A stretch of DNA of 35,277 nucleotides, from positions 1 to 35,277 of the forward strand of contig CAVRJL010000002.1 of the NCBI GenBank assembly GCA_963721525.1, written 5' to 3'. Each line of letters begins with the position of its first letter. Positions within the stretch are counted from its first letter, which is position 1. Source of the DNA: an uncultured Negativicutes bacterium (GTDB lineage Bacteria > Bacillota > Negativicutes > JBAXTZ01). The position numbers and the translations under genes were made by a program. Of the stretch, positions 16,500 to 34,705 are shown in pieces. A model generated the notes under the pieces. It was not told the origin of the DNA and did not search any database. It saw only the letters and a list, made by a program, of their open reading frames with translations.

Positions 16500-18253
16500 T
16501 TATTTACCGACATGAAATTTAAGTGGTTGGTTATTCATAATAACCGGATAAATGTTAGTAATTTCTTGTACGCCATCTATATTGTACGTATATGCCTTCG
16601 AAATCTCATCTTTAGCATTACTGGTATTTCCAATTCTATAATCCAGTACCGCCAAATATAGCCATAACCTCTCATCCAGTGGATACTTTTTAAGCGCAGT
16701 GTTTTTGATAAACTCGATATTTTCTTTTGGATTACCATAATCTGTTCCTAATGCTGATAAATTATCATAAGTTGCTAAATTATCTCCGTATCTAATTGCT
16801 TTAAGGTAAGCTGATTTTGCACCTTTGTAGTCACCTAGATAGAGATCTGCATTTCCTAAATCTGTATAATTAAATACATAGGGGAAAAGTTTTATTGATC
16901 TTTCGGCGTGAAGTCTTGCATCCTCATATCTACCTTGAGCAAAATAGTTATTGCTTAGCTCATGTTCCAAAGCATAAGCCTCCCTAGATACTTTAATATC
17001 GTGACTGGCTAAAGTGAAATTATCCTTCCAATCAAAACTTCTAATAAATGTCCTTGTCGCTAATATAATTAAAATAATAATTGTCATAAAAAGAATCATT
17101 TTGTTTTTAAAATTTATTTTGAATACTTCTAAACTTAGTCCGATCATGCCAAGTAAACCTACTATTGGATAATAGAACCATCGATCTGCTACCGTTTGAT
17201 AAGGGTATGATTTGAAGGTGAAATATTATTCCGAGTAAAAACCAGACACTAAAAAAAATATAAACGGTAAAATATTTTCGAGGGGACTTTTTTATAAAGA
17301 AAGACGGCAAAAAGAGATATTGCTAACAAGAATAATAAGTCGATTAATAAGGGAAGGAAAAAATGGCTTAAATCAATTTGCGTATATACCCACTGATATG
17401 ATACTGCAAGGTCACGAGGGAAAAGAAACGTTTTTATATAGAACAAAAACATCTCGGGTATATTTATAGCTCTGATTAGCAAATTAAGTTTTTGAATTGG
17501 AGCATTTGCTGTTGATATAGCAGTTATACCGATTGCATATATTCTTGACTAGTTCAGTAGATACCAAGAACAAGTATTGAATATCCCAATGTTTGATAAA
17601 AACTTTTTCTTTTAAATAAAAATGAATATAACAGCGATATGAAAACAAAGAGTATGCCCGGTTTCTTTTGAGAGTAAGGAGAGTAAAAGGAGTAAACTTG
17701 CCACTATGAGAGCTTTCTGTGAATGATACTTTTTAAGTAGCAATAAAGCAATCATCCCGAATAGAAAAAAGAGTGTCTCTTGAGTATCAGATATATAAAA
17801 AGCAGATTCACTATTTATTGGATGAATCAGAAAGACTATTGATAATATAAATGCAATCGGTTTATTGAAGAAAGATTTAAAAAGAAGAAAAACAAGACAA
17901 GCATTTATTATAAATATCAGTAGCTCGAAGAGATGATAGGCGAAATAATTTGGGCCAAATAAGGAATAGGTAAGAGAATATGATGTCTCAAGTAACGGTT
18001 TATAATAAATTCCTCCAAGATTTAATCCTGGTCCTTTATAGAAAGTACTTCCGGAGAAAAATGCCGGGATATTATTAAAGGACTGAATAGTTAGATTGTA
18101 GATTATTTGTGGATAATCATCACCAACAAACCCATTGAATAGTCCGTTGAAAAATACAATAATTCCAATAATTGCAATAAAACTAAAGGCTTTTATTGTA
18201 GTAAGTGGCACAAATAAACTTTTTAAAGAAAAATAATTTTCTTGCTCAGGCAT
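16500..18253 (-). CDS. TMTC-like GT-C/TPR glycosyltransferase, paralog 3 (frameshifted)
   Basis: ORF pieces 17612-18253, 17249-17482, 17107-17310, 16500-17147; FVGDD, YYKP, HPINSES, SKETG, TPR tail. Confidence 0.85.
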
Positions 18254-18288
18254 GATTAAATACTAACAGTATAATGTTTCCCTTTCAA
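18254..18288 (-). promoter_or_regulatory. sigma70 promoter of paralog 3
   Basis: TTGAAA (18288-18283), 17 nt, TAGTAT (18265-18260), 6 nt, ATG. Confidence 0.75.
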
Positions 18289-18492
18289 GCAAGAAAGTAA
18301 GAATTAGGTATTAAAAGAATATTTAAGCTAAATCCATGAGACCTTTTACGTATTGCCCTAAATTGAGAAGCTGGCTTAAAGTGTTGATAGTTATTTCCAC
18401 TCAATAATACTTATATTGGAATTTGAGAAAAAGAAAGCATTTAGACAAAAATGCTTTAGAAAATATAATTAGAGAAAAAAAATTTTAAATTA

Positions 18493-20244
18493 TTAATTTC
18501 TATTATGTAGTTTTTCATATAACGAATTTATTGCTGGATTTGTAGGATTTAAATAATATGCGTGATTGATTGGACTTATTGCATTATTCAACTCATTTTT
18601 CTGATATTCTATTTCTCCTAAATATAGCCATAAATTTGAGTCCTGGGGAAACTTCTTTATTGCTATACCTGAGTAATATAAAGCAGTGTTAGTCTGATTA
18701 TTTTTCATTAAAACTACTACCAATCGTTCGTAGACAGAAGCTTGGTCAAAAAGGTTAATCATTTTCTCATAACACTTTATTCCTTTCTCTTTCAAGCCAG
18801 AGTCTTTATTTGTATTACCCAAGATAATAGTAATTGTACAATAATTACTATAGTTAATTACCGAATATGGATAGGCAGTGACTGATTTTTCTATCTCTTG
18901 CTGTGCACCTTGTAAGTCACCCCTTTGAAATAACTCATAACCAAGATTTCCTTCCATAAAATAATCATTGGGATTAAGTTTTAAATCATGTGTATAAAGT
19001 GTTATACCATCTCTCCAATCCGAGCTTCTTATAAAGGTTATCATACTTAATAATATAATTAATGTAATTGAAAACATAAACAAAACATTTTTTACATATA
19101 CTGTTTTTATCTTAATAGAGCTTATAACAGTTCCGATAATTCCTAATAGGCCAACAATTGGGAAATAGAACCATCGGTAAGCTATTGTCTGGTCCAGAGG
19201 AATTATTTGAAGATGTATAGATAACCCGATTATAAACCACAAGCAAAAAAATAAATAAATAAGTTTTTTGTCACTTTTTTTATACCAGATAAAAACTCCT
19301 AATGTCAGTATGCATATTATTGTAAATAAATCAATTATAACCGGAATATAAAAGTTACCGAAATTTGCAGTTTCTACAACTACGTTATTTGACATTGGTA
19401 AATTAAAAGGATAAAAAAATCCTAATATATAAGATGACATGATTAAAGGAACTGTTAATAACCTATGAAATAAATCCGCATACATAATAGGACTTGCTTT
19501 GGGACTATTTACATATATCCCAACTGCAGGGATTCTAAGTAAGGCATAAATTAATAATGCCGGTATAAAAGATGAAATCTGAATCAATTTTTGTTTTTTA
19601 ATAAAAATTAAAATAAAAGTGACAATTATCAGAAAATAAAGTATCCCTGATTCTTTTGACAATAGTGATAAAAGCAACAGTGCTGGAGCCAGATATCTAA
19701 CTAAGTAAGTCTTTGTTTTATACATTATAAGTAGTAAGGATGAGATTCCGAATATGAAAAATAAACTTTCCTGAAGATTGGCAATATATAAAACAGTCTC
19801 TGAATTTATAGGGTGGACTAAAAATATGAGTGATAAAAAGAATGCTAGTTTTTTGTTAAAAAAATATTTAAATAAATAAAAAACGAATATACTATTTATA
19901 ATCTGTATCAATAATTGAGCCCCATGGAAAAAAAATGGGTTGAGACCAAATATTGAAGAAATCAATGCAAATAATGTTAGCGTTACAGGTTTATAATAAA
20001 TACCTGATAGATTACCCTGTTGAGAAGAATAGTATTGACCGCCTTGAAAAAATGAAAAGATATTAGAAATGGATTGAACTTTGGGATTATAAACTATAAG
20101 CGGTAGGTCGTCGGCAACAAAATTATTAAAAAGTCCTGTGCCAAAAATCAGTAGTCCAATAATAATGATAATGTAGGTTGCTTTTTTTATAGTAAGAGGC
20201 ACAAATAAACTTTTTAGGGAAAAATAATGTTCTTGTTCAGGCAT
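18493..20244 (-). CDS. TMTC-like GT-C/TPR glycosyltransferase, paralog 4 (intact, 583 aa)
   Basis: FVADD, YYKP, HPINSETV, SKESG, RWFYFP; about 11 TM segments then TPR-like repeats. Confidence 0.88.
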   Translation of the reverse strand: MPEQEHYFSLKSLFVPLTIKKATYIIIIIGLLIFGTGLFNNFVADDLPLIVYNPKVQSISNIFSFFQGGQYYSSQQGNLSGIYYKPVTLTLFALISSIFGLNPFFFHGAQLLIQIINSIFVFYLFKYFFNKKLAFFLSLIFLVHPINSETVLYIANLQESLFFIFGISSLLLIMYKTKTYLVRYLAPALLLLSLLSKESGILYFLIIVTFILIFIKKQKLIQISSFIPALLIYALLRIPAVGIYVNSPKASPIMYADLFHRLLTVPLIMSSYILGFFYPFNLPMSNNVVVETANFGNFYIPVIIDLFTIICILTLGVFIWYKKSDKKLIYLFFCLWFIIGLSIHLQIIPLDQTIAYRWFYFPIVGLLGIIGTVISSIKIKTVYVKNVLFMFSITLIILLSMITFIRSSDWRDGITLYTHDLKLNPNDYFMEGNLGYELFQRGDLQGAQQEIEKSVTAYPYSVINYSNYCTITIILGNTNKDSGLKEKGIKCYEKMINLFDQASVYERLVVVLMKNNQTNTALYYSGIAIKKFPQDSNLWLYLGEIEYQKNELNNAISPINHAYYLNPTNPAINSLYEKLHNRN

Positions 20245-20315
20245 TCTTAAATACTAACAGTACAATGTTTCCCTTTCAAGCTTCAGATTAATAATTAGGT
20301 ACTAAAAAAGACTTA
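20245..20315 (-). promoter_or_regulatory. Promoter and conserved upstream block of paralog 4
   Basis: TTGAAA (20279-20274), 17 nt, TAGTAT (20256-20251), 6 nt, ATG; 20246-20315 matches 32901-32970 inverted at 67/70. Confidence 0.8.
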
Positions 20316-20326
20316 GAACTGAATCC

Positions 20327-20375
20327 ATGTCCCAAACAAAGAAAAGGTTTACGTAGTGATGTCCAGAATAAAGAA
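20327..20375 (-). repeat. TGTTTGGGAYAT-family site (core 20327-20338) plus degenerate partner
   Basis: + strand atgtcccaaacaaaga...cgtagtgatgtccagaata resembles the pair at 23312-23385. Confidence 0.7.
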
Positions 20376-20508
20376 ATAATATATGTAGATAAAGACTTAA
20401 GAAGGGAAGGTCAATATGTTAGTGGGAGTATAGAGATTTTTTTCTTATAATTATATAATATATATAGGAGAAGGATTTTTAGAAAAATTAGCTTCAAGAT
20501 TGTAATAT

Positions 20509-20534
20509 ATCTGCGTGTACGCGTACACGCAGAT
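20509..20534. repeat. Perfect 26-bp palindrome
   Basis: ATCTGCGTGTACG|CGTACACGCAGAT. Confidence 0.95.
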
Positions 20535-20703
20535 TATTAGTTTCTTTTAAACCTCGGAAACATATTTTTTTGGACAAAAATTATAGTAGCTGTAATAGTA
20601 TAAGATCGATTGGATCACTATCACTGTTTAGAAATTGGGCAATTTACCAAAAAAGATGTCTATTTTGTCTGATTTAGATTTTATACTTTTGTATAATTAT
20701 TTA

Positions 20704-22380
20704 TTATTTTGTTGCCTGTTGTACGTCATTCTTACTGCTCATCTTGTACTCACTTGTCACAAGAGTGTATTGTAAGTCAGCGGAATTTGGATAATACCGA
20801 AGACCGATTAAGCTTGTCTGCTTCGCTGCATCTGGTTTGTTTAATCTGATTTGTGCTAATGCTAACCTAAAATAAATATCAACTATGTGTTGATGGTTAG
20901 TTATGGAGTTTGTAGAATTAAACGCTTTAGAATAATATTCTTCTGCCTTTTGTAGATTTCCAGTAGACTCGTACGCAACACCTAAGTCATAAAGATTAAT
21001 GCCATAAGGATAAAGGTTTACTGATTTTTGAAGATGCATGATACTTTGGGGAATATTTCCTTCCTGCATATATTCTGCGCCAAGACTTGACTCCAGTTCA
21101 TAATTGCCTTCAACCTGCGTATCATGGGATAAGAGTGTTGTTTCATCATAGTAGTTTGTATTTCTTAACATTGTTCTAAGAGAAAAAATTATCAGTATAC
21201 TGATTGCAAATGGAAGTAAAAATGGTTTAACAAGCGGCTTCTTTATTAATAGCTGTATACCTACTCCTATCATTCCTAAAAGACCAATCATTGGGAAGTA
21301 AAACCAACGATCGGAGACTGTCATATCTAATGGGGAAAATGGTAGATGTAAACCAACTCCTATCAAGAACCAAATAAAAAAGAAACAGAACACTTTAAAA
21401 AGCGCTTTATTGTATTTCCAAAGATAGAGAGCTATTCCAAATATACATAGAAAAAAGAAGGAATCTAGTAACAAAGGTAGATAAAAACCACTAAAATTGA
21501 TTGATGAAATCGTCCAAAATTGTTCAATTGCTAATTTTGATGGGAAAAGAAACGTTTTTATGTAATAAAAAAATATGGCAGGTATGTTGATTAACTTTTG
21601 ATAGAACGATAGATGTGCGATCGGGACAAATATAACTTCACTTGGAGTATTCGATTGTAAAGTAAAAGTAAGAAGTTCCTTTCCAATTGTAATTCTGCAT
21701 AATAAATAAGCGGCACTTGCACTAAGAGAACAAAGGAAAATATATTTGAAATGTTTTTTCAGAAATAGAAAAGAAAATAGTGCGACAACGATTACATAAA
21801 GAACTCCTTCCTCTTTTGTAAGTAAAGCAAGAAATAGTAATAATGTAATGAAAAAATATATTTTCTTTGTCAATTTAGTTTTTTGGACTAATAATAGAGA
21901 AAGTAAGCCAAATAAAGAAAATAAAGGACCAACATTTCCCGCTATATATGATGCTGATTCAACATTCATTGGGTGGACAAGAAAAATAAGTGAGAGAAAT
22001 AAAGATAGTACCCTATTAAAAAAATATGTTAATACAATAAAAAGCAGAGCAACTACAAATATATGGATACTTAATTGAAATAGGTGATAATAGAAAGCAT
22101 TTTGTTGAAAAAAGAGATAGATGATTGAAAAAAGCCAAGCTGTAAAGGGCCGATAATACGTTCCATTATTAAATATACTTGGTCCAAATATTTTCGCAAA
22201 ATTAATTGTATGAATCTCAGAATTATTGACTATAAAAACAATATCATCCCAGACAAAACCATTAAAAAGAGAGTTAAAGAAAACAAGAAATCCAATGATC
22301 GATATACATATGATTGCTTTTTTTGCCGTGAGGGGAATAAATAAGCTTTTAAAAGAGAATTTTTGATTCGTTGGTTGCAT
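20704..22380 (-). CDS. TMTC-like GT-C/TPR glycosyltransferase, paralog 5 (intact, 558 aa)
   Basis: FVWDD, YYRP, HPMNVES, TKEEG, SDRWFYFP, TPRs (LYDLGVAYESTGNLQKAEEYYSKA). Confidence 0.88.
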   Translation of the reverse strand: MQPTNQKFSFKSLFIPLTAKKAIICISIIGFLVFFNSLFNGFVWDDIVFIVNNSEIHTINFAKIFGPSIFNNGTYYRPFTAWLFSIIYLFFQQNAFYYHLFQLSIHIFVVALLFIVLTYFFNRVLSLFLSLIFLVHPMNVESASYIAGNVGPLFSLFGLLSLLLVQKTKLTKKIYFFITLLLFLALLTKEEGVLYVIVVALFSFLFLKKHFKYIFLCSLSASAAYLLCRITIGKELLTFTLQSNTPSEVIFVPIAHLSFYQKLINIPAIFFYYIKTFLFPSKLAIEQFWTISSINFSGFYLPLLLDSFFFLCIFGIALYLWKYNKALFKVFCFFFIWFLIGVGLHLPFSPLDMTVSDRWFYFPMIGLLGMIGVGIQLLIKKPLVKPFLLPFAISILIIFSLRTMLRNTNYYDETTLLSHDTQVEGNYELESSLGAEYMQEGNIPQSIMHLQKSVNLYPYGINLYDLGVAYESTGNLQKAEEYYSKAFNSTNSITNHQHIVDIYFRLALAQIRLNKPDAAKQTSLIGLRYYPNSADLQYTLVTSEYKMSSKNDVQQATK

Positions 22381-22415
22381 GTAGATATCCTAGCATTGTT
22401 TAATGTGTGTATCAA
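22381..22415 (-). promoter_or_regulatory. sigma70 promoter of paralog 5 (same geometry, different sequence)
   Basis: TTGATA (22415-22410), 17 nt, TAGGAT (22392-22387), 6 nt, ATG. Confidence 0.7.
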
Positions 22416-22485
22416 TTACAGTAGGAGTGGTATAAATCTTTTTTTCTATATATTTGTAGCAATATCGTAAATAAAGATAATTTGC

Positions 22486-22542
22486 TGATATATGGGCCAA
22501 TGTCCAAAACAGAGATATATGGCCATTTATCAAATATCGGGA
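22486..22542 (-). repeat. Tandem TGTTTGGGAYAT-family sites
   Basis: + strand tgatatatgggccaatgtccaaaacaga followed by gatatatggccatttatcaaatatcggga. Confidence 0.75.
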
Positions 22543-22635
22543 CAATACTACTATTAAAATTTAATATGGCGAGAGACTTCACTGCAGAGGTCTGTTGATA
22601 TTTTGGTAGATTCTGATTTATTTTATACTATTTAT

Positions 22636-22974
22636 CTACGACAATTGAAAAACTTTTACTAATTTATTTTTTAATTCAGGGATGAGTTCGTCAGGTAATG
22701 ATCCTTGTCCTTCTTTTAAAACATTTGATTGAAACGTAACGAGTCGATGGAGCTTTAAAACGGATTTTTGTATTAATCCTGTTGAAGAAAAATATGCCTC
22801 TTTAGGATCAAGAATGATATCTGTTTCCAAAATCTCATCTAATTGGGTTGTCACATAGGCAACTATCACTTGTTGATGCTTACCGAACGCGGAAGAAATA
22901 ACAAAAGCAGGGCGAGGTTTTCCCTTGTTTGCATCATTTGCAAATGGAAATGTAACACTAACTAGCTCGTACAT
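22636..22974 (-). CDS. PemK/MazF-family toxin
   Basis: ELVSVTFPF...GKPRPAFVIS...VTT...GL...SVLKLHRLVT. Confidence 0.85.
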   Translation of the reverse strand: MYELVSVTFPFANDANKGKPRPAFVISSAFGKHQQVIVAYVTTQLDEILETDIILDPKEAYFSSTGLIQKSVLKLHRLVTFQSNVLKEGQGSLPDELIPELKNKLVKVFQLS

Positions 22975-23245
22975 ATGGTTTTGGAGTAAACGGTTTTAGC
23001 TTTTCTGGGTGAGCAATATTATTAACATTAAGCGTTTTGTCCATTTTAGACCATTCGTAAAATAATTGAGATGAGACTATATCCATTTCATTTGGATTCA
23101 TTTCAGTATTTTTTGACTGTGCAAAAGTCCCAACAGCCATTTTAATAAGCTCTGTAGTATTTAACGTGCCCAAGGTTGATTGGCGTAAAATTTGGAGAGC
23201 TTTTTCCAAATCTGGAGTAACGGTAAGACGGATAGTTTGTGACAT
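22958..23245 (-). CDS. Putative cognate antitoxin (RHH-like N-terminus)
   Basis: 95 aa, overlaps the toxin start; beta-alpha-alpha-like TIRLTVTPDLEKALQIL...TTELIKMAV. Confidence 0.65.
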   Translation of the reverse strand: MSQTIRLTVTPDLEKALQILRQSTLGTLNTTELIKMAVGTFAQSKNTEMNPNEMDIVSSQLFYEWSKMDKTLNVNNIAHPEKLKPFTPKPYVRAS

Positions 23246-23247
23246 AT

Positions 23248-23283
23248 AATGGCTATATTATACCATAAATAGCCATTTGTCAA
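23248..23283 (-). promoter_or_regulatory. TA promoter with operator-like inverted repeat
   Basis: TTGACA (23283-23278); AATGGCTAT-N12-ATAGCCATT (23248-23277) spans the -10 region. Confidence 0.75.
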
Positions 23284-23311
23284 CCATAATTATGAATTTG
23301 ACTTCTCACGA

Positions 23312-23385
23312 TGATATATGGGCCAATTTTCCAAACAAAAGACAATTATATTCTTATTCGTAGCGATGTCCCAAACAGCGGGAAT
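23312..23385 (-). repeat. Two TGTTTGGGAYAT-family sites (cores 23326-23337, 23366-23377)
   Basis: + strand tgatatatgggccaattttccaaacaaaaga and cgtagcgatgtcccaaacagcgggaa. Confidence 0.8.
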
Positions 23386-23485
23386 TTATTTTGAATCAAT
23401 AGATTAATAAGGCATTACAGATCCTAACTAATCTAAGTGATTTATCCTAACCAGCTGCGTTGCTAAATAATGGATTTATTTCAAA

Positions 23486-23878
23486 TTATGGTTCTGAAAC
23501 ACTAATAGTGTGAATTGAAGAAAGTCTTTTGTCGTAGGTATAAAGGGTCATATTCCCTAATTCTGCAAATGCTGCTAAATAAGAGTCAATGTATGAAATA
23601 TTATTGTCTTTCCATATTTTTAAAGCTCTTCCAATTAGGAACGCATTACATTCAACACTATCTACATGAATTAACGCCATTACTTTATCAATTACCTCCT
23701 GTTTTTCCAGAGAGTAGTATGAATTTAGTACCCATATTATTTCAGCAATAACAGTATCAGGAATAATATTGTGGTTACTTGAGTCTTTTAAAAGTCGTTC
23801 AACGCGGGAGACTTTTACAGGGTCGTCATTAACAAAGAAACGGATAATAAGATTAGTATCAATTAAGTTTTTTGACAT
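23486..23878 (-). CDS. vapC: PIN-domain toxin (VapC family)
   Basis: IDTNLIIR, VIAEIIWVL, SYIDS, TYDKRL acidic PIN residues. Confidence 0.9.
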   Translation of the reverse strand: MSKNLIDTNLIIRFFVNDDPVKVSRVERLLKDSSNHNIIPDTVIAEIIWVLNSYYSLEKQEVIDKVMALIHVDSVECNAFLIGRALKIWKDNNISYIDSYLAAFAELGNMTLYTYDKRLSSIHTISVSEP

Positions 23879-24110
23879 ACTTAACTATTAGGGCGTCTTC
23901 AACAGCTTTTTCCATAGCTTCAATATTAAAGGGTTTATGAGATTTAATAGAACCTTTAAGAGCAAAAAAGTCAGCAACAGGTTTAATTGATACGGTATTA
24001 TCATTAATTTCAAACACTATTTTTGTGTTTGGCTTAATTCCAAGCAACTGACGAATTTGGACAGGAATTGTAGCTTGTCCTTTTTGAGTTACAGAAGTTG
24101 TAAATTGCAT
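23859..24110 (-). CDS. vapB: AbrB/MazE/SpoVT-family antitoxin
   Basis: VTQKGQATIPVQIRQLLGIKPNTKIVF. Confidence 0.88.
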   Translation of the reverse strand: MQFTTSVTQKGQATIPVQIRQLLGIKPNTKIVFEINDNTVSIKPVADFFALKGSIKSHKPFNIEAMEKAVEDALIVKYVKKLN

Positions 24111-24158
24111 ATTAATACGATATCAAAAAAGTATTACTATGTCAATAGGGTAATACTT
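24111..24158 (-). promoter_or_regulatory. vapBC promoter with operator-like inverted repeat
   Basis: TTGACA (24145-24140), 17 nt, TATCGT, 6 nt, ATG; AAGTATTAC-N12-GTAATACTT (24129-24158) straddles the -35. Confidence 0.75.
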
Positions 24159-24250
24159 ATTTGTGTGTTAGGAAAAACGAATAAGAGAGCACATTACGCA
24201 CGAATAAAACATTCTTTCGTTGGCTGTTCCCAACGGTGAATAGTTAAAAC

Positions 24251-24277
24251 GGGCCAATATCCCAAACAAAAGATAAC
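24251..24277 (-). repeat. TGTTTGGGAYAT-family site (core 24257-24268)
   Basis: + strand gggccaatatcccaaacaaaagataac versus gggccaattttccaaacaaaagacaat at 23320. Confidence 0.8.
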
Positions 24278-24325
24278 TCGTGCGTAAATATTTCAATAAT
24301 ATTCCCAGTTCAAGAAACTTGATGT

Positions 24326-24838
24326 ATGATACATGTAATGGATCTTTCTAATAACTCTATCTCTTTAGCAGGTGAATTTGCAGTACTATCTCAGTTGGCC
24401 TTACGTGGTTTTGATGCAAATATGACGCTGGGCAATACAAAAAGCGTAGATATTCTAGTATCTGATCCACAACAAAATAGATTGTTTAAAATTGAGGTAA
24501 AAACTCATTATAGAGTAACTCCAACTCAATCTAAGTTATTTGGGCATCATTTAGGTTGGATGATGTCGCAAAAACACGAAAACATTATTGATCCAAATCT
24601 ATATTATGTCTTTGTTAATATTGGTAATGACTCTAGAATATTCAGATTTTTTATTGTTCCCAGTGTAATTGTAGCTAACTATGTGAAAGAACAACATATA
24701 TATTGGCTTTCTCATAAATTGAGTGAGGAGAGTGATTCTTCAATTCGTAGTTTTAGAATAGGTTTGGATGATGGGGTTTACGCAATACAAACACCTTTGG
24801 CAAAAGATTTTGAGAATAAGTGGGAATTTACGCTTTAG
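24326..24838 (+). CDS. PD-(D/E)XK nuclease-family protein
   Basis: AGE.AV...L..RG, VDILV, IEVKT (E...D...ExK). Confidence 0.75.
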   Translation: MIHVMDLSNNSISLAGEFAVLSQLALRGFDANMTLGNTKSVDILVSDPQQNRLFKIEVKTHYRVTPTQSKLFGHHLGWMMSQKHENIIDPNLYYVFVNIGNDSRIFRFFIVPSVIVANYVKEQHIYWLSHKLSEESDSSIRSFRIGLDDGVYAIQTPLAKDFENKWEFTL

Positions 24839-24938
24839 TGATTAATGTAAGTTTAGGAGATCAGTGTATCAAGGCCACTATTATATACAACTAGAGGAAG
24901 TATAAGAATTATAGTGCTATAATCGAAAGAGCATAAAC

Positions 24939-27900
24939 ATGAATCTTTTTAACCCTAAAATTCTTCAACAACGACTCGCTGCTTTTGATTTTCCTACCGG
25001 AGAAAAGTCACAACAGATTGCTAAAGGTATTACTGGTTGGCAAACTGCACTAAAAGATCGGGATTTGGCTAAAACAAAAGAGAAAACCATACAAGGATTA
25101 TTTTTACAAAAGTTTTTTGGAGAGATCCTAGGCTATACATTAGTTTCAGAAAACATTGAAGAATGGAATTTAATCCAACATCCCACCTCAGAAGTTGATG
25201 CACAAGAACCTGATGGCTCACTTGGCTTTTTTACTAAAGAAGAAAAAATTACCAAGGCGGTTATTGAGCTTAAAGATGCAAAAACCTCACTTGATAAAAA
25301 ACAAACTGGACGGGGAAAAGGCTATACACCAATTGAGCAAGCATATTTGTATTCAACAAAGTTTGATAGATGTAACTGGATTATCGTGTCAAATTTTAGA
25401 GAGATACGACTATATAATGAAAATCGTACACAGGATTATTTTGAAAAGTTTGATGTGTTGGAGCTTCATAAAGAGGGAGAGTTTAAGCGCTTTTATTATC
25501 TTCTTTGCAAACAGAACTTACTTTCAAAAGCAGCAGCATCAATTATTGATGACTTGGCCAACGATACAACTGTAGTCAATGAAGATATTACCAAAAAGTT
25601 TTATGGAGAATATAAAAACGCTCGTTTAAGTTTATTTAATCACCTTGTAGAGCACAATCCCACGATAGATAAAACAATCTTACTTGAAAAAGCACAAAAG
25701 ATTATAGATAGATTTATTTTTATTCTATTTTGTGAGGATACCGGTAATTTGATGCCTCAAAATTTAGTGAAAGATACGTATGAATTTGGGATTCGATCAC
25801 GAGAGAGAAGCGATGAGCGGGTATGGCGAGAATATAAAAATTTGTTTATGGATATTGATGTCGGAAGAAGTGATATAGACCCTAAAATAAACAAGTATAA
25901 TGGAGGGCTTTTTGCAAATGACGAGATTTTAAATAATCTAAAAATAAAGGATTCAATTTGGAAGGCACTAGTTGATCTAAATACCTATGATTTTGAAAGT
26001 GAGCTAAATGTAAATATTTTAGGACACATTTTTGAGCAAAGTATTAGTGATTTAGAAGCTTTAAAAACATCAATTCATCTTCTCACGGAGGATGGGAATT
26101 ATTTAACGACAGAAAACGGTGATAGATTAATAGCAGAGCAGGAAGATATACAAATTGTTGAAAAAAAAGGGGAGAAGAAAGAAAGAAGGAATTTTTTATA
26201 CGCCTGAATTTGTCACCCAATACCTTATCGAAAATGTTGTCGGCCGTTTTCTTGAGGATAATCCGAACAAACTTGAGAGTATAAAGATACTGGATCCCGC
26301 CTGTGGGAGTGGTGCGTTCTTAAATCAAGCACATACGTTTCTCATGAATGAATATAAAGTGAGACATGAACAACGGCTAGTAGAGCAAACAAATAAGCGA
26401 CAACTAGATTTTTCTGACGTAAATTTAGCCGAAACGAATAGGAGCATATTACTTAATAATTTATATGGAGTCGATTTAAACCCTGAAAGTGTCGAGATAA
26501 CTAAATTGTCGTTGTGGCTTAAGACTGCACGTTCATCTGAACCTCTCCAAAATCTTGATAAAAATATTAAGTGTGGCAATAGTATAGTTGATGATCCGGA
26601 GTATGCCGGATCACGAGCCTTTCACTGGCAAAAAGAGTATCCTGAAATTCTTAGAGATGGTGGATTTGATGTCATTATTGGTAACCCTCCATACGTGCGA
26701 CAAGAGTTGATAAAAGACATAAAGCCATATTTGGAAAATAAATATAAAGTATACTCCGGTGTGTCTGATTTATATGTGTACTTTTTTGAGAAAGCCCTAG
26801 ATCTCTTAAGAGATAACGGATATTTCGCATTTATTGTCTCGAGTAAATTCTTACGCGCTGATTATGGAAAGAAACTTACTCAGTATCTACAACAAAATTA
26901 CACTATTCTTGAGTTAATCGACTTTGGAGATTTACAAATATTTGAAGGTGCTACAACTTATCCTTGCATCATTACTATTAAGAAGAAAAAACCCGAGGAC
27001 TTGCAGCAGGTGAGCTTTCTCAAACTAAAGTCTTTAGATGTGGTTAGCGACTTAGGAATGGCCATGAAAAAGGAAGGGCAGACGATTGAGATTAAGAAAG
27101 ACGATGAAAATTGGCAATTGAGAACAATAGAGGAAAATAACATATTATTAAAACTTAAATCAAATAAAAATATTTTGGACGATTTTGCTGATAAACAAAT
27201 ATTAAGGGGAATAATTACTGGCTTCAATGAGGCTTTTATAATTAATTCTAATACTAAAGAAAGATTAACTAGGGAAGATCCAAAATGTGTTGAAGTTATT
27301 AAACCAATTTTTATCGGGAAAGATATCAATAGGTATGATGCTACATGGCAAGAGCTCTGGTGTATCGTCTTACCGGCAGGATGGACAAATAATAATAGGG
27401 GGGAAGAAGATCCAGAAGCTTATTTTCAGACGTATTACCCTTCTATTTACACTCATCTTAGGAATGTTCAATCTGCCTTTAATAACAATAATGGGAATGG
27501 TGATGCTAGAAAAAAAGGGTTGTTGAATCGAGATGATCAAGGAGACTATTGGTGGGAACTAAGACCATGTGTCTATTATAAATTGTTTGAACAACCAAAA
27601 ATTATTTGGGGTAATTTGTCCACGCATGCTTCTTTTTCTTATGATTCAAAAGGTTTTTATATCAGCGCGCCTGCTTGTTTTATTCCAACCAAAGAAAAGT
27701 GGCTACTAGCTATATTAAATTCACCAATCTCAAGCTACTTTTTGAGAATTACAGCGATTGAGCGACAGGGTGGATTCATAGAACAAAAACCAATGTATGT
27801 TAAAGAAATTCCAGTACCTAACCTCCCCAGCGAGCTAAAATCTGTTTTGTCAAGTGAGGTAGACTTATTATTACAGTTATATAAGGGGGAACAGGAACTC

Positions 27901-28236
27901 ACTTATCAGTCGTTGGAATTATTAAAGACTGAATATGCCAACATCAAAATTACTAAAAAGTTAGAAAATTTTTTATCGTTAGGTTGGAATGAATTTATAG
28001 AAGAATTAGAAAAGCAAAAGATAAAACTTTCCTTACAGAAAAAAGATGAATTAACTAAATGGTTTCGAGAGAAACAAACACGTTTCCAAAAAGCAGAGCA
28101 ACAAATTAAAACAATTGATGAGTCGATGGACAAGGAAATATATAAGATTTACAAACTTTCCAATAGCGACATACAGATAATTTTGAATAATATTCACCAA
28201 AATATTTCACAAAAGGATTTACCCGCAATATCATAA
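24939..28236 (+). CDS. Type IIG restriction-modification enzyme (nuclease + N6-adenine MTase + TRD), one frameshift near 26165
   Basis: EPDG...IELK nuclease, YNGGLF, ILGHIFEQ; then GIFYTP, LDPACGSGAFL, IGNPPYVRQE and a TaqI_C-like TRD. Confidence 0.9.
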
Positions 28237-28478
28237 ATGTCTGACTACATGAGCTTTAGGTCTTCTATATAAATTATAATATTTTTTCTTTCGAATTTAT
28301 TTAATGTATGTTTGAACCTAGAATTTATTTTTAAGGCATTTACTGTGCATGGAATTGGTTGTTTTGAAAGTTGATCTAAACATTTATATGGAGTAGTAAA
28401 AGAATTATAGTGTACTATTATATCTTAATTTAATATAATTATTAATGTAATTGTATTATTATTCGAGAGTTTTTAGTA

Positions 28479-29300
28479 CTAAAAATTATTAAACCATGCA
28501 GTATCAATCTCAAGTATTTCTTTAGTGATAACCTTAACTCCTAAGCCTAGATCGCACATTTTTTGTGCTAGCTCATCTCCCTCTACTAAATCTATTGGTA
28601 TTGATCCATCTCTATTTGCTTCTTGTTTTGCGTCTCGTGTGAAAGTACCCGTTGTAATAAAAAGACCTTTATCAGCTCTTCCAGACATTGTACCTTTAAA
28701 CTCTCGGATTTCTTTGGAAGAAACACTTCCTTTGTATCTTTTACATTGAAAAATAACTTTAAAACTTAAAAATCCGCCAATTTTAATTAATCCTGTTCCA
28801 TCTATTCCACCATCACCTGATTTTCCTGTTACATTGACTTGTATAAAACCAGCTTCTCTTAAAATTCGTTGACATAATCTTCAAAATCTTTTGGCGACAA
28901 ATTTTTTAAGATTGTCAGTAATTCATCCTTCCATGAGTCAATGTCTGTATTCCCAAATTGTTCTACAATTTCTCCAGCAAATTTACTTAAACCTTTTACG
29001 AAAGTATTGACTTTGTCTTTATCGACATTCGATGTATTTTTGCCTAGCGATGTTAGTACCCAAACACCTCTTGAAGAATTTTCTAGTAATCCGTATCTTT
29101 TTAAATAGTTCCTTGCCCAAGCCAGACGATAATTTAGTACAGTTCTATTTCCCTGATGAATTTCGTTAACTTCTCGATCTGAAAGATTAAGGATACTTGC
29201 TACTTTCTGTTCCTGCTCGGCAATTGATGCAGGACCCGCCCAATTCGTGAAGTGCTTTTAGTAATGGATTGAATAACCCATCGTATTTTGGTATTGCCAT
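28479..29300 (-). CDS. mrr: Mrr-family type IV restriction endonuclease (frameshifted)
   Basis: From ATG 29300: MAIPKYDGLFNPLLKALHELGG...YRLAWARNYLKRYGLLENSSRGVW (Mrr N-terminal domain); then VTGKSGDGGIDG, FQCKRYKG, GLFITTG.FTRDA. Confidence 0.88.
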
Positions 29301-29441
29301 ATATGTATTTTATCAGATCTCCGCAATGTTTTAATTTTATCTTTAGTGCCTGCCTACAGCTGGTTGTTTTGGAGATACAAGGATATCCTATCTTTATTAT
29401 ATTGTCTAATTACTAAATTCGCGTTATAGTTATTTGCGCGT

Positions 29442-29995
29442 TTATTCGTTTGTAGATTGTGCTACATTTTTTAAATGTTGTTCAACATTTTTAAATGCAG
29501 CACGTACATTGTTTGCTTGGTCGTCTATATCTGACACTGTCCAGTCAAGAGCCATAGCTACATAACTTTCATCTCCTAATGTTTGACTGTGAGAGTCTCT
29601 ATTAGCTATGTCATAGGTAATCATAGAATTAAAAATTCTAACTTCATTATAAGCAATAATTAACTGGTTACCTAGCTCTTCAGGTAATAAATATATAAGT
29701 CCTTTATAGATATTCCACGCTTCAGTTACGAAAGGTACCTTTCTATTTCTATTTGCCCTTTTCATTCAACTGAAGATTTTCTTGAGCTTCAATAAATAAC
29801 CCTCTGATCATAGCTTTTTTTCTCGTCTGTAATTTTTTTCAACTGTCGATCTCTTGCTTGTCTTGCAAATTCATTTGCAGTTACCCTCAAAGTAAAATAA
29901 GCAGTTAAGATCGCGAATACTCAGACAGAACCCCCAACCAACCCTCCTGAAACTGCACCCCAATTGCCGTCTTTTAAATATAACAGTAAATTCAT
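29442..29995 (-). CDS. Hypothetical protein with N-terminal TM helix (interrupted)
   Basis: ATG 29995 lies 7 nt after TATAAT; MNLLLYLKDGNWGAVSGGLVGGSV, in-frame TGA, VFAILTAYFTL; must join ORF 29442-29765 through indels. Confidence 0.5.
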
Positions 29996-30059
29996 TTGGT
30001 CTATTATAGCACTGCTATTATATAGTTTTGTTTGTGGCACACGATTTTTTAGTATACTT

Positions 30060-30216
30060 TTCGTGCCTATTTTCTCGCTGTTTGGGATATTCTCAATTCT
30101 TCAGTTGTGCCTATTTTTTTTGGTTGGGATTATCAGTATCGGTTTAATGGTGATTAAGCATCATTTTGTGCGTAATTTTTTGTTTGGGATAGGCCGTATT
30201 TAATTCTGTTTGAGTA
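30060..30216 (+). repeat. Cluster of four TGTTTGGGAYAT-family sites (cores 30079, 30121, 30181, degenerate 30207)
   Basis: gtgccta-N9-tgtttgggatatt; gtgccta-N7-tggttgggatt; gtgcgta-N6-tgtttgggataggcc; tgtttgagt. Confidence 0.8.
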
Positions 30217-30230
30217 ACGGAAAAAAGCCA

Positions 30231-30268
30231 TTGACAAGACTTTATCAAACCATTATAATTATATTATC
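30231..30268 (+). promoter_or_regulatory. Consensus sigma70 promoter of the RelBE-like operon
   Basis: TTGACA, 17 nt, TATAAT, 9 nt, ATG. Confidence 0.85.
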
Positions 30269-30553
30269 ATGAATAAAACAATCCTTCAAGTACCATTAAG
30301 TCAACAGATCAAAAATGAAGCTGAAAAAGCAGCTACAGCCCAAGGATTTTCTTCCTTACAAGAAGCAGTTAGAATATTTCTAAATAAACTTGCTCAGGGT
30401 GCAATACAGGTAACTTTTGAGGAAACGATCCAGTTATCTGAAGATGCAACAAATCGTTACAATAGAATACTTGCTGATATAGAAAACAATAAAAATATGA
30501 ATGAGGCAGAAAACATTGATGATTTAATGAAGCAACTTCATAATGCGTCTTAA
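30269..30553 (+). CDS. RelB/DinJ-like antitoxin
   Basis: ILQVPLSQQIKNEAEKAATAQGFSSLQEAVRIFL; acidic tail NIDDLMKQL; overlaps the toxin start. Confidence 0.75.
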   Translation: MNKTILQVPLSQQIKNEAEKAATAQGFSSLQEAVRIFLNKLAQGAIQVTFEETIQLSEDATNRYNRILADIENNKNMNEAENIDDLMKQLHNAS

Positions 30554-30806
30554 TTATACTCAAAACTTCATAAAGAATTATTCAAAGCGAATAGTAAAGA
30601 ATAAAAGTATTGATAAACGGTTTCAAGAGCGGTTGCAATTATTTCTAGCTAATCAACATAGTCCAATTCTTAGAACTCATAAACTAGCTGGTGCAAAGAA
30701 GAACTTATACTCCTTTTCCATTACTGGAGATATTAGAGTTATATATTTTCAAGAAGGAGAATCAATTTTCTTGGTTGATATTGGAACTCATAATCAGGTT
30801 TATTAA
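30543..30806 (+). CDS. RelE/YafQ-family mRNA interferase toxin
   Basis: F.K.Y.K...LRTHKLAG...YSFSITGDIRVIY...DIGTHNQVY. Confidence 0.9.
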   Translation: MRLNYTQNFIKNYSKRIVKNKSIDKRFQERLQLFLANQHSPILRTHKLAGAKKNLYSFSITGDIRVIYFQEGESIFLVDIGTHNQVY

Positions 30807-30842
30807 TATACAACCACTTAAAACAAACATATACTATTTCTT

Positions 30843-30913
30843 TGTTTGAGATCTATCTTGTTTTATTAAAGTTTTATTCGTGTCTAATTCTTTTATGTTT
30901 GGGATATTCTCAA
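30843..30913 (+). repeat. TGTTTGGGAYAT-family site (core 30896-30907) plus degenerate copy at 30843
   Basis: ttcgtgtctaattcttttatgtttgggatattctcaa versus ttcgtgcctattttctcgctgtttgggatattctcaa at 30060. Confidence 0.8.
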
Positions 30914-30959: not shown

Positions 30960-32732
30960 ATGCGTGAGCAAAAAGATTATTTTCCCTTAAAAAGTTTATT
31001 TGTGCCTCTTACTACAGAAAAATCAATCTACATTATTGTTATTTTGGGTTTTATTGTTTATTTCAATGCTTTCTTTAATGGATTTGCCGCTGACGATATA
31101 CTATATATCGTTAATAATCAATTAACTCATGTAGTAAATATTATTCTTGCATTCGGAGTAAATGACTTTAATAGTTCTGGGCAATATCGTCCTATACCAG
31201 CGTTTTATTTTTCATTACTTTATTCGTTATTTAGTACAATTCCATTTTTTTATCATCTACTACAAATTATTTTGCATATTATTTGTACAGTATTAATTTA
31301 CTTTTTATATCGTAAATTTCTATCACCAGCTATTGCATTATTTTTAAGTCTTGTATTTCTTGTCCATCCTATGAATGTTGAATCAGTTTCATATATTGCA
31401 CAAACAGTAAGCCCTCTGCTCTTTCTTTTTGGAGTAATAGCACTTCTTTTTTCTGCTTCAAAAAATTTATCCAATAGCAAAATTGTTATAATTTTTTCTT
31501 TACTACTCCTTTCGCTCTTGACTAAAGAAAGTGGTGGAGTCTTTCTTCTTTTAGTGCCTCTATATCAATTCCTTTTTACCAAGAAAAATCGACTAAAACT
31601 TGCCTTTGATCTCTTTTTGTGTACTTATAACATATCTATTAATACGTCTGGGAATTGGCCAAGTTGGTTTTTCAGCACGTCCGTTAGCAAATATTGCTGG
31701 AATATCTCTTAGTAGAACGTTTACTTAATATTCCCGCAATAATTTTTTTCTACCATACATACCTTCTATTCTATCCCAAGACTCTTGCCTTTGATCAACA
31801 ATGGGTTATTAGTTCAGTAAGTTTCTCTACTTTCTATATACCATTTCTATTTGATGCAGTATTTTTTGGTTTTATTTGCGTATTAGGTATCTATATATAT
31901 AAATGGCAAAAGAATTATTTTAGGCCTTTTCTTTTTTTCTCTCTTTTGGTTTGTTTTCGGCCTGGGTCTATATTTACAAATATTCCCGCTTGATAAAACA
32001 GTCGCTGAACTTTGGTTCTATTTCCCAATGGTAGGTTTACTTGGTATAGTAGGAATTTTTTATCAAATACTAACTTATAAGTTTTCTGCATACTACAGAA
32101 TTACTCCCATACTTGTTATTATTATTCTTTCTTTATTATCGCTGCGGACTATTGTTCGCAATACCAATTGGCAAAACAATTTCACACTTTATACTCATGA
32201 TATTGTCTATAACGATAACTTCGATATTGAAAATAACCTTGGAATAGTTTATGAAGATAATAATGAATATACACTGGCATTGCAGCATTATAAAAAGTCG
32301 GTTGCATTAAAGCCATTCGAATTGAATTTAGCTAATCTGGCAATTACTTACCAGAGTATCGGAGACTTGCAAAAAGCTAAGCAATATTACTACCAGGCTT
32401 TTCATGCAAAAGACTACAAGCTCGATTCCAACCATAAGCATAATCCAAACTTAGATGTTGGCTATGCAACTTTTTTAGTGTTTTATGAGAATTCTCCTTC
32501 TGCAATATCTTTTATTCAATCAGCAGTGAATGATTATCCAAACCAAGCAGACTTGTGGACACTGTTAGCACTTGCTAACTATATAAATCGTGATAATCAA
32601 AAAGCCCTTTATGCGGCAAATAAAGCATATCAGTTAAACCCACAAAATGCATATATATATAATCAAATCCAAAATGATCAACCTGTTGAGTTTAACTTAG
32701 ATAGTAAAACCTTTCACATTAAACCAAGATGA
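30960..32732 (+). CDS. TMTC-like GT-C/TPR glycosyltransferase, paralog 6 (frameshifted)
   Basis: ORFs 30960-31712, 31694-31993, 32028-32732; FAADD, QYRP, HPMNVESV, TKESG, TPRs. Confidence 0.85.
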
Positions 32733-32900
32733 GAACCTTAGTAATGAATACAAATTGGTCAGATGAGATTACCTTATTGAACCATGATTTCAAAGTTCAG
32801 TAGAAATGTTCCCTTATAAGCTAAACTATTAGGAGATAGGGTTTATTTACGAACGAATAGGGAATAACAGCTATGTATACAATTAAACAATAATTAGTCT

Positions 32901-32971
32901 TAAGTCTTTTTTAGTACTTAATTCTTAATCTGAAGCTTGAAAGGGACACATTGTACTGTTAGTATTTAAGC
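32901..32971 (+). promoter_or_regulatory. Promoter and conserved upstream block of paralog 7
   Basis: TTGAAA (32937-32942), 17 nt, TAGTAT (32960-32965), 6 nt, ATG. Confidence 0.8.
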
Positions 32972-34705
32972 ATGCATGAGCAAGAATATTATTTTTCTTT
33001 AAAAAGTTTATTTCTACCTCTGACAACGAAAAAAACAATTTGGATTATTGTTATTGTCAGTTTTATAGTTTTCTTCTATATGTTATTCAATAATTTTGTT
33101 TTGGATGATTTAACATATATTCAATTTAACACAGATATTCATTCATTCAATATAGAAAAAATATTTGGCAATAGTTTTTTTAATGATTCCTCATACTATC
33201 GACCAATAGCTGCTCTATATTTTACAATTTTATATTTATCGTTTGACAATACGACTTTTTTCTACCATGTTTTCCAGCTAGCATTCCATATAACAGACGT
33301 AGTATTATTATTTCTTGTTTTCAAACATTTCTTTAACCGTAAACTCTCTTTATTTCTTTCCCTCATTTTTCTTGTACATCCGATACAAGTTGAGTCGGTT
33401 TCGTATATTTCAGCATCTGACAGTACAATATTCTTTCTTTTTGGTATCATTGCGTTACTGCTTTCTTTAAAAAATGAAATTACACTGAGAAGACTGATGG
33501 GAATATCAGGATTACTGTTATTATCTTTACTTACTAAAGAGACTGGGTTTCTTTTTCTTGTAGTTATTTTCTTTTATTCACTTTTATTTAAGAGAAAGTA
33601 CTTGGTTAAATTTTCTATAGCATTTGTAATTATTACATTACTCTATTGCTTTATCCGCTTCATTATTGGAGGAGTTTTTTTTACAAAACCGAATGCAATA
33701 CCGATTAGTGGTCTTACTCTGTTTGAACGGTTTATCAATGTACCAGCAATTATTTACTATTATATTAAAACAATATTTTTACCTCTACAATTGGTAGTTG
33801 ATCAACAATGGATAATCAAAACTGTGGATTTTCCTAACTTTTATTATCCACTGATTATTGTTATAAGTTTTTTCCTATTTATTGCAGCTTTCATATTTTA
33901 CTTAAGAAGTAACAGAAAGCCTATATCACTATTTATGTTTTTTTTACTTTGGTTTATCATGGGATTGTTAATTACTTTACCTTTTTTCCCGATTGATGCG
34001 ACTGTCGCGGATAGATGGATGTATTTTCCAATGGCCGGGTTTTTAGGAATGCTTGGTGTTATATTATCTTCAATAAAGATAACTAAATATAAAATAAAAA
34101 CAGTAGGTTATATATCAGGAAGTCTAATCTTGTTGTTTTTATCACTGAGGACAATGGTAAGAGATACAAATTGGTATGATCCTATTACTCTTTATTCTCA
34201 TGACAGTCAAATACAAACAAATTATGATTTGGAAAATTGGCGGACCCTTGAATATGCTTCAATGAATAAGTATGATGAAGCGATACAACATTATAAAAAA
34301 TCAGCTGCCTTATATCCTTACGAAGTTACTTTTTCTAACCTAGCACATACTTACCGACAATCAGACGACAACAATAAAGCTAAAGAGTATTATATTAAAA
34401 CTTTAAATGCTCAATATATCTCACCAATACATAAACAGGTAACTGAAGATGCTTATGAAGGATTAGCGGATTTGTCTGTTCTCTCTAATAAACCTAATGA
34501 CGCCCTACTTTTTATTGAAACTTTATTGCGAAAATATCCAAAGTCTGGGAAATTATGGGCGGATTTAGCAATGAATGAATATAAATTACATAATCAAAAA
34601 GCAGCACTTAATGCAGCATTTAAGGCAAAAGTACTTACTCCTGATGACAACATAAATTATATATATTCTCAAATCCTAAATAATCAGCCTATTAATTTAC
34701 CATAA
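32972..34705 (+). CDS. TMTC-like GT-C/TPR glycosyltransferase, paralog 7 (intact, 577 aa)
   Basis: FVLDD, YYRP, HPIQVESV, TKETG, ADRWMYFP, TPRs. Confidence 0.88.
   Translation: MHEQEYYFSLKSLFLPLTTKKTIWIIVIVSFIVFFYMLFNNFVLDDLTYIQFNTDIHSFNIEKIFGNSFFNDSSYYRPIAALYFTILYLSFDNTTFFYHVFQLAFHITDVVLLFLVFKHFFNRKLSLFLSLIFLVHPIQVESVSYISASDSTIFFLFGIIALLLSLKNEITLRRLMGISGLLLLSLLTKETGFLFLVVIFFYSLLFKRKYLVKFSIAFVIITLLYCFIRFIIGGVFFTKPNAIPISGLTLFERFINVPAIIYYYIKTIFLPLQLVVDQQWIIKTVDFPNFYYPLIIVISFFLFIAAFIFYLRSNRKPISLFMFFLLWFIMGLLITLPFFPIDATVADRWMYFPMAGFLGMLGVILSSIKITKYKIKTVGYISGSLILLFLSLRTMVRDTNWYDPITLYSHDSQIQTNYDLENWRTLEYASMNKYDEAIQHYKKSAALYPYEVTFSNLAHTYRQSDDNNKAKEYYIKTLNAQYISPIHKQVTEDAYEGLADLSVLSNKPNDALLFIETLLRKYPKSGKLWADLAMNEYKLHNQKAALNAAFKAKVLTPDDNINYIYSQILNNQPINLP

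Follow-up and report, generated by a model that had tools for sequence, protein, structure and literature searches.

How do Patescibacteria, whose genomes are tiny, come by hypervariable defence and surface islands, the assembly of which is poorly known? The question is raised by a stretch of 35,277 nucleotides, positions 1 to 35,277 of contig CAVRJL010000002.1 in assembly GCA_963721525.1 (hereafter the window), in which a short sequence that we call the X box recurs between toxin-antitoxin (TA) pairs, restriction genes and genes for surface glycosyltransferases. The original prediction, made from the letters of the window, took these repeats for the crossover sites of a site-specific recombinase that builds integron-like cassette arrays. 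Our explanation, held with moderate confidence, is that the boxes mark where mobile accessory modules end, and that a tyrosine-type recombinase acts on these modules through a crossover or coupling sequence of 6 bp. What stands of the earlier claim is a boundary site that is not attC, is conserved in relatives and is best read as a recombination junction; the box itself is probably an arm beside the crossover, and the six bases after it would be the crossover or coupling sequence.

The 9-mer TGTTTGGGA occurs in six exact copies in the window, at the very places where it had been noticed by eye, and none of 100 shuffles reached that number (mean 0.29, maximum 2), which agrees with the rough estimate of less than one chance copy per window. 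All six copies are intergenic, as had been claimed, and belong to 12-mers, on the minus strand at 20327-20338, 23366-23377 and 24257-24268 and on the plus strand from 30079, 30181 and 30896. The copies are not dispersed evenly. The 769-kb bin that includes the window holds seven copies of the 9-mer, six of them in a 10.6-kb stretch of the window and the seventh on contig C15, by eye apparently in coding sequence, and exact 12-mers are absent from 49 kb of core genes on contig C7. Genome-wide tallies of the bare 9-mer are misleading, since most of its copies seen beside TMTC-like genes elsewhere are plain codons (FVWD there; LFG-type words in membrane proteins).

A weight matrix for the X box was trained solely on boxes from other genomes and used with a listing threshold of 10 bits. 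At 13 bits or more it finds eight intergenic and two coding sites in the window, against a background of 0.4-0.6 per 10 kb, and because a matrix from other genomes alone recovers these eight, the window boxes can be placed in the same family as those of other genomes. Among the near copies reported earlier, those at 22500 and 23326 reach at least 13 bits and those at 29365 and 30843 reach 11-12 bits, whereas those at 30121, 30207 and 20637 fall below 10 bits, as does a copy at 30029, and count by position only. All left-facing boxes of the window lie at 20.3-24.3 kb and all right-facing boxes at 30.0-30.9 kb. Each of the six box clusters stands 64-158 bp ahead of a co-oriented gene, so the reported position upstream of and co-oriented with the next gene is correct for the window, but it holds for just five of 16 boxes in other genomes.

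Tetranucleotide composition of the window contig (C2) correlates with that of C15 and C16, the two largest contigs of its bin (G000), at r 0.47, against 0.81-0.89 for same-size chunks of C15, and with that of C7 at 0.71. The bin has two ATP synthase sets, on C5 and C7, and the named homologs of the window glycosyltransferase are from Patescibacteria, several of them Levybacteria. Judged by sequence, C2 and C7 are probably Levybacteria (Patescibacteria) contigs mis-binned with a genome from outside the candidate phyla radiation, and composition suggests that both derive from one organism, of which the analysis covered about 84 kb. Bin G000 and its 60 "relatives" were rejected as context on the tetranucleotide divergence and the two ATP synthase sets; because the window contig looks mis-binned, the bin is uninformative on the motif and the absence of recombinases from it is meaningless. 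Motif matches in G003 and G025 were likewise discarded, having no flanks in common with the window sites. The comparison was re-centred on the order (245 genomes) that contains the best Levybacteria-type match. The ATP synthase gamma subunit of C7 is nearest to those of G182, G179 and G180, at 83, 67 and 66% identity.

The exact 12-mer was found in 94 of the 245 genomes of this order. Twenty regions from nine genomes with multiple matches were read; the matches were mostly coding, but those of G301, G190 and G302 included clusters that lie between genes, run in one direction and have flanks in common. The X box proves to belong to a longer composite element, some 75-110 bp in length, whose full unit consists of A (an X-like box), six bases, an inverted 13-base arm B, a C box of the GAGGCTAA type, 8-10 bases, D (an exact X) and a conserved hexamer, often with a further X 26 bases past D. 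The spacing from B to C is 11-6-11 in seven of seven full units. Partial units occur in G180, G181, G179 and G092, and a metagenome scan gave the element in one of 28 matches (contig L160). The genomes that bear boxes have an ATP synthase gamma only 53-67% identical to that of C7, and their cargo is unrelated. In G301, four units come between a HigBA-type pair, a Fic gene and an 83-aa gene regardless of gene direction; in G180, outward-facing boxes stand at both ends of a 10-kb island that includes type I restriction-like genes; and L160 and G301 have the same helicase and MazG cargo to the left of the unit but differ by two genes between. The 16 boxes outside the window comprise five that face a co-oriented start, four without a gene ahead in the locus and seven that face the 3' end of a gene, of which four have a 3' end behind them as well. 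With seven of 16 facing 3' ends, X boxes are unlikely to be operators.

A model of the whole unit (R1), applied to 101 family genomes, gave strong matches only in its three training genomes, all others having E values of 5.7e-4 or weaker. At two mismatches, a class-wide search matched 50 of 396 Microgenomatia genomes, with controls also frequent, and gave no new array; among the 30 loci read, intergenic matches were confined to the sites already known in G301, G180 and G167 plus four that stood alone. Since R1 had no strong match beyond its training genomes and the class-wide search gave no new array, the element seems, as far as such searches reach, to be patchy and limited to some of the Levybacterales covered. 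Four scans of viral contigs returned nine coding matches, two matches in unrelated phages lacking the element, none and none. Rfam models matched only tRNAs on the G190 array locus (L110). The G190 and G181 arrays both lie 5' of a tRNA-Val(TAC) gene (L110:8604-8678 and L316:3515-3588), in opposite orientations, and the G190 array begins just after a tRNA-Leu gene.

The conservation does not stop at the box. Seven exact intergenic 12-mers were found independently of the hexamer, and six of them are followed by GCGGTC (background 8e-5). Over ten such sites, four of which had been chosen by hexamer, column identity is 0.9-1.0 across the six bases after X and 0.3-0.7 further on. One hexamer class is common to G301, G190, G302, G180, G092 and L160, a TCAG-type class is present in G190, G180, G181 and weakly in the window, and two classes are private to the window. 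Junctions of the form arm-6 bp-inverted arm occur in G301, G190, G302 and L160; most sites are without a second arm. In G190, two outward-facing boxes, complementary at 11 of 12 positions, enclose an AHSA1 gene, and the same hexamer stands outside each box as a direct repeat, a match expected of a random hexamer pair with P 4.3e-4. This layout is the pattern of tyrosine-recombinase integration, as the entry of an arm-6 bp-arm circle into a one-armed target would leave it.

We propose that a tyrosine-type site-specific recombinase would bind the X box as its arm and cut in the adjacent six bases. Modules with outward-facing arms at their ends would then excise and integrate through an arm-6 bp-arm junction, and they might either carry the hexamer along, in the manner of Tn916 coupling sequences, or need matching hexamers, in the manner of the spacers of plasmid dif (pdif) sites. 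Modules landing beside existing arms would build tandem or nested arrays, and the division of the window into left-facing and right-facing boxes could be a product of nesting or of a later inversion.

Several observations weigh against this proposal. The hexamer match in G190 is a single case that was noticed post hoc. None of the five left-end hexamers of the window equals any of its seven right-end hexamers in direct orientation, and the hexamers of the two boxes round the G180 island differ, which leaves one locus of three (G190, and neither G180 nor the window) where an outward-facing pair has a matching direct-repeat hexamer; the mismatch in the window could be tolerated if the chemistry were Tn916-like or if the window halves had been inverted. 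The predicted symmetric arm-6 bp-arm junction was present at one or two mismatches in four of 13 genomes, compared with three of 13 for controls, and in no viral contig. No excised junction was found, and no pair of empty and filled alleles was obtained. The hexamer counts are not independent because kin share sequence by descent, the window boxes are more decayed than their counterparts in G301 and G190, and the two extra genes of G301 have no box at their far border. A linked tyrosine or serine recombinase, for which the original prediction had suggested looking, was not found beside any array examined, and serine resolvases are absent from G190, G301 and G302, all incomplete genomes.

The window has no recombinase, as had been stated, and neither an integrase nor an excisionase is present in it or among the scanned open reading frames (ORFs) of the G301 and G190 arrays. 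G190 and G302 have two housekeeping-type Xer paralogs only, and G301 has these and a prophage integrase (the genomes are incomplete). One Xer paralog adjoins a dif-like site, a symmetric 11-6-11 palindrome ringed by C boxes of the GAGGCTAA type. The palindrome was found beside a XerD-like gene in 11 of 41 loci (L319:2418-2446, L369, L371, L372, L373, L375, L383, L386, L387, L393 and L394), and it is likely the dif of Levybacterales, a candidate site that comes as a by-product of this work. In G167 its distance to the skew switch is about 70-170 kb; G190 and G302 have it intact beside xer on contigs other than those of the arrays. In the window, gene content confounds the skew. The symmetry of the dif-like site leaves the second Xer paralog free. 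That paralog is encoded beside tRNA genes in five of five genomes checked (L171-L175) and carries Asn/Asp where the catalytic HxxR motif has His-x; no X cluster lies near it in any of the five loci. By elimination only, this second paralog, not linked to dif, is the candidate enzyme. With a conserved border site and a candidate crossover, the assembly of islands can be put to the test using synthetic sites and the two candidate host recombinases.

Two pattern families that look like canonical dif were rejected, because they fall within conserved genes and their variation is at third codon positions. Conserved coding stretches of this kind, in an ftsW-like gene and a GT-C gene (L213-L224, L270-L278), mimic canonical dif and would mislead dif-prediction tools in this order. 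A C box and a weak X box also stand 85 bases before the G301 prophage integrase (L176:960-990, contig C7 of G301), a gene located between lysis-like and terminase-like genes; no relatives were found in viral contigs. The C box was considered as a variant DnaA box and rejected, given that dnaA regions have ordinary DnaA boxes with their recognition motif and that a single C box, with no cluster, was found at one of six dnaA loci. The X box was considered as a LexA box and rejected, since in five of five genomes neither an X nor a C box lies within 300 bp of lexA. A short palindrome over the lexA promoter in G190, G301 and G302 (L337-L339) is a candidate LexA box for the lineage.

Integrons and clusters of attC sites lacking integron-integrases (CALINs) are arrays of accessory genes, and CALINs are without an adjacent integrase. 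The sites described here resemble them in bounding accessory gene arrays with promoter-bearing TA pairs and in having no integrase next to them. The likeness to an integron array goes no further, and that part of the original prediction is not supported. As it had itself observed, attC is missing: RYYYAAC/GTTRRRY pairs 40-130 bp apart were found in none of 16 site neighbourhoods by a simple pattern test with a background of 4/500. Hairpins are mostly lacking, 17 of 20 folds having z above -2, the exceptions being both strands of window 24190-24300 (z -3.2 and -3.0) and L160 (z -2.7). Unlike in integrons, genes run both ways relative to the site, and seven of 16 boxes elsewhere face 3' ends. 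No IntI was found among the four recombinases scored, which fall far under the integron-integrase cut-off, in metagenome-assembled genomes that are incomplete. The box has no fixed polarity relative to cargo, and the presence of both orientations agrees better with modules whose ends face outward, or with an inversion, than with an integron-like array.

Tn916-type ends have coupling sequences of 6 bp and a characteristic layout of arms. The sites resemble such ends in their outward-facing terminal arms and in a short flanking sequence that may differ at the two ends, and differ in that the modules have one to few genes, without an integrase, an excisionase or transfer genes. The Tn916 integrase needs no homology between coupling sequences (PMC5812530). 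For the dif modules of Acinetobacter plasmids, PMC13141974 describes small accessory modules, often TA pairs, between pdif sites with a 6-bp spacer; each pdif site is a complete XerC-6-XerD copy of the host dif, the sites alternate in orientation, spacer identity matters, and inversions and deletions are expected. Compared with that account, the modules here are similarly small, often TA, bounded by putative recombinase arms beside a conserved 6 bp and found in either orientation, but most sites show a single conserved arm, with further boxes at fixed distances, and the arrays have long runs in the same orientation and no match to the host dif-like site. Integrative mobile elements exploiting Xer (IMEX), such as the TLC phage and the gonococcal island, have one conserved arm, a conserved centre and a divergent second arm, and accumulate in tandem at dif (PMC5357621). 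The single conserved arm, the conserved central region, the divergent second arm and the tandem accumulation recur here; unlike IMEX, the G190 and G302 arrays lie on other contigs than the dif-like site, and their arm polarity misfits it. By the dif and pdif features given in PMC2731167, PMC5357621 and PMC13141974, we consider that the sites resemble dif-module junctions in the way they would work and are not members of that class. They are apparently an undescribed variant of dif-module or Tn916-type junctions.

Other readings of the same boxes can be put beside the recombination junction. The AHSA1 module of G190, with its 12-bp inverted ends and 6-bp direct repeat, would also suit terminal inverted repeats of non-autonomous cassettes resembling miniature inverted-repeat transposable elements, moved by a DDE transposase with a 6-bp target duplication, and the short B-C-X unit (~49 bp) has inverted ends too and could be an empty element. 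We regard this as unlikely, because random target duplication would not be expected to leave an identical hexamer after the box across genomes and modules. Most boxes, moreover, are without a partner having a matching hexamer, and no transposase is encoded by the ORFs next to the G301, G190 and window arrays, though no genome-wide transposase search was made. The fixed 6-bp extension is unexpected for an operator as well. It makes distinctly unlikely the idea that the boxes are sites of a lineage-specific regulator or nucleoid protein controlling or silencing defence and stress genes, as do the boxes that face 3' ends, the clustering of sites in single islands away from the core genes of C7, and the lack of boxes before lexA. 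The window clusters ahead of co-oriented genes, spacings of 26 and 53-55 bp that suit protein arrays, and the C box being a common intergenic word in Levybacterales, also near promoters and the xer locus, are what speak for such a protein.

It appears improbable that the dif-linked host Xer uses the sites as degenerate copies of dif, which would make the arrays ordinary IMEX or dif modules. Reversed, X does resemble an arm of the dif-like site (post-hoc P 0.006 for the C variant and 0.055 for the T variant), C boxes crowd that site, and the B-C spacing of full units is the 11-6-11 of the palindrome. The resemblance nevertheless has the wrong polarity, since the end of X that faces the conserved hexamer corresponds to the outer end of the dif arm; the window has no full dif match, its best score being 8.2 bits inside a gene, the arrays have no intergenic full match, and G190 and G302 keep their intact dif-like site on other contigs, beside xer. 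Very improbable, finally, is the view that local duplications and an inversion left the copies behind as inert relics, or that faulty assembly produced some of them. The contig does have many frameshifts and paralog repeats, and the stretches that follow the boxes at 24268 and 30181 resemble each other in inverted orientation, but recurrence of the same box and spacings in independent genomes, as their ATP synthase gamma sequences attest, beside unrelated cargo has already largely refuted it.

Returning to mobile modules handled by a tyrosine-type recombinase, we entertain, tentatively and with considerable doubt, a broader proposal: that Levybacteria have a host-level gene capture distinct from integrons and dif modules, in which promoter-bearing defence and stress modules with outward 12-bp arms, a carried 6-bp coupling sequence and an accessory box shared with the dif locus would be moved by the second, catalytically divergent Xer paralog, which has no dif of its own. 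The literature searched, which left subscription journals largely outside, yielded no description of this border site or of the dif-like site.

Within the window, the left-facing sites (minus strand) begin with an exact box at 20327..20338, 94 bp before a TMTC-like glycosyltransferase gene. A box with one mismatch and a hexamer of the TGGCCC class (22494..22511) lies between mazF and a TMTC-like gene, and one with two mismatches and the TGGCCC hexamer (23320..23337) lies ahead of the mazEF promoter, 40 bp from the exact box at 23366..23377. The innermost left end, at 24251..24268, is an exact box with the TGGCCC hexamer and has an inverted C-type box on either side (24194-24204 and 24277-24287). 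On the plus strand, a B-type arm (a 13-bp inverted X variant) at 29365..29377 has a sequence that recurs in G301 at position 6326 of locus L107. The innermost right end, at 30029..30096, comprises a degenerate A box, a C box (30060-30070), an exact X (30079-30090) and the hexamer TCTCAA; it is followed at 30104..30138 by a weak C box and a weak X box and then TCAGTA, a hexamer class also present in G181, G190 and G180, and at 30165..30218 by a C box and an X box (30181-30192), with a second, weak box 26 bp further along, a spacing also seen in G301, G190 and G181. The fullest composite unit of the window, at 30843..30913, has an A box, a degenerate B arm, a C box (30877-30887), an exact X (30896-30907) and TCTCAA, and the leader common to the TMTC-like paralogs begins just after it. 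Several genes of the window are frame-split, which points to possible single-base errors in T-runs, and spacings inside the sites may therefore contain errors.

The cargo between these sites includes three TA pairs, for which the claim that cargo carries its own promoters is borne out by sigma-70-type matches. They are a MazF/PemK toxin with a 95-aa probable antitoxin lacking a Pfam match (22636..23245, minus; promoter match 23283-23255, 10/12), a PIN (VapC) toxin with an AbrB/MazE antitoxin (23486..24110, minus; 24145-24117, 10/12) and a 94-aa probable antitoxin, also without a Pfam match, with a YafQ/RelE toxin (30269..30806, plus; 30231-30259, 12/12). Between the two halves lie a gene for a 170-aa protein (24326..24838, plus) with no match in Pfam, NCBIfam or PADLOC, in which inspection by eye alone suggests a nuclease-like acidic motif, a type IIG restriction-modification gene split over two overlapping frames (24939..28236, plus), a Mrr-like type IV restriction gene in several frames (28479..29310, minus) and a gene in two frames for an uncharacterized protein with an N-terminal hydrophobic stretch (29442..30000, minus; upstream limit approximate). 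The surface glycosyltransferases, listed as cargo in the original prediction, are more loosely tied to the sites: an exact box precedes two of six aligned paralog leaders and a near copy precedes a third gene. Those next to boxes are a TMTC-like GT-C/TPR membrane glycosyltransferase (18493..20244, minus), a TMTC-like TPR membrane protein paralog (20704..22380, minus) and a TMTC-like GT-C/TPR gene in three frames (30960..32732, plus) directly after the last X box. In all, about seven TMTC-like GT-C/TPR paralogs with a common leader of ~45 bp, several of them frame-split, occupy 945-2078, 6873-8176, 16500-22380 and 30960-34705 of the window, and a GC-rich, perfect, terminator-like hairpin lies between two of these genes at 20509-20534.

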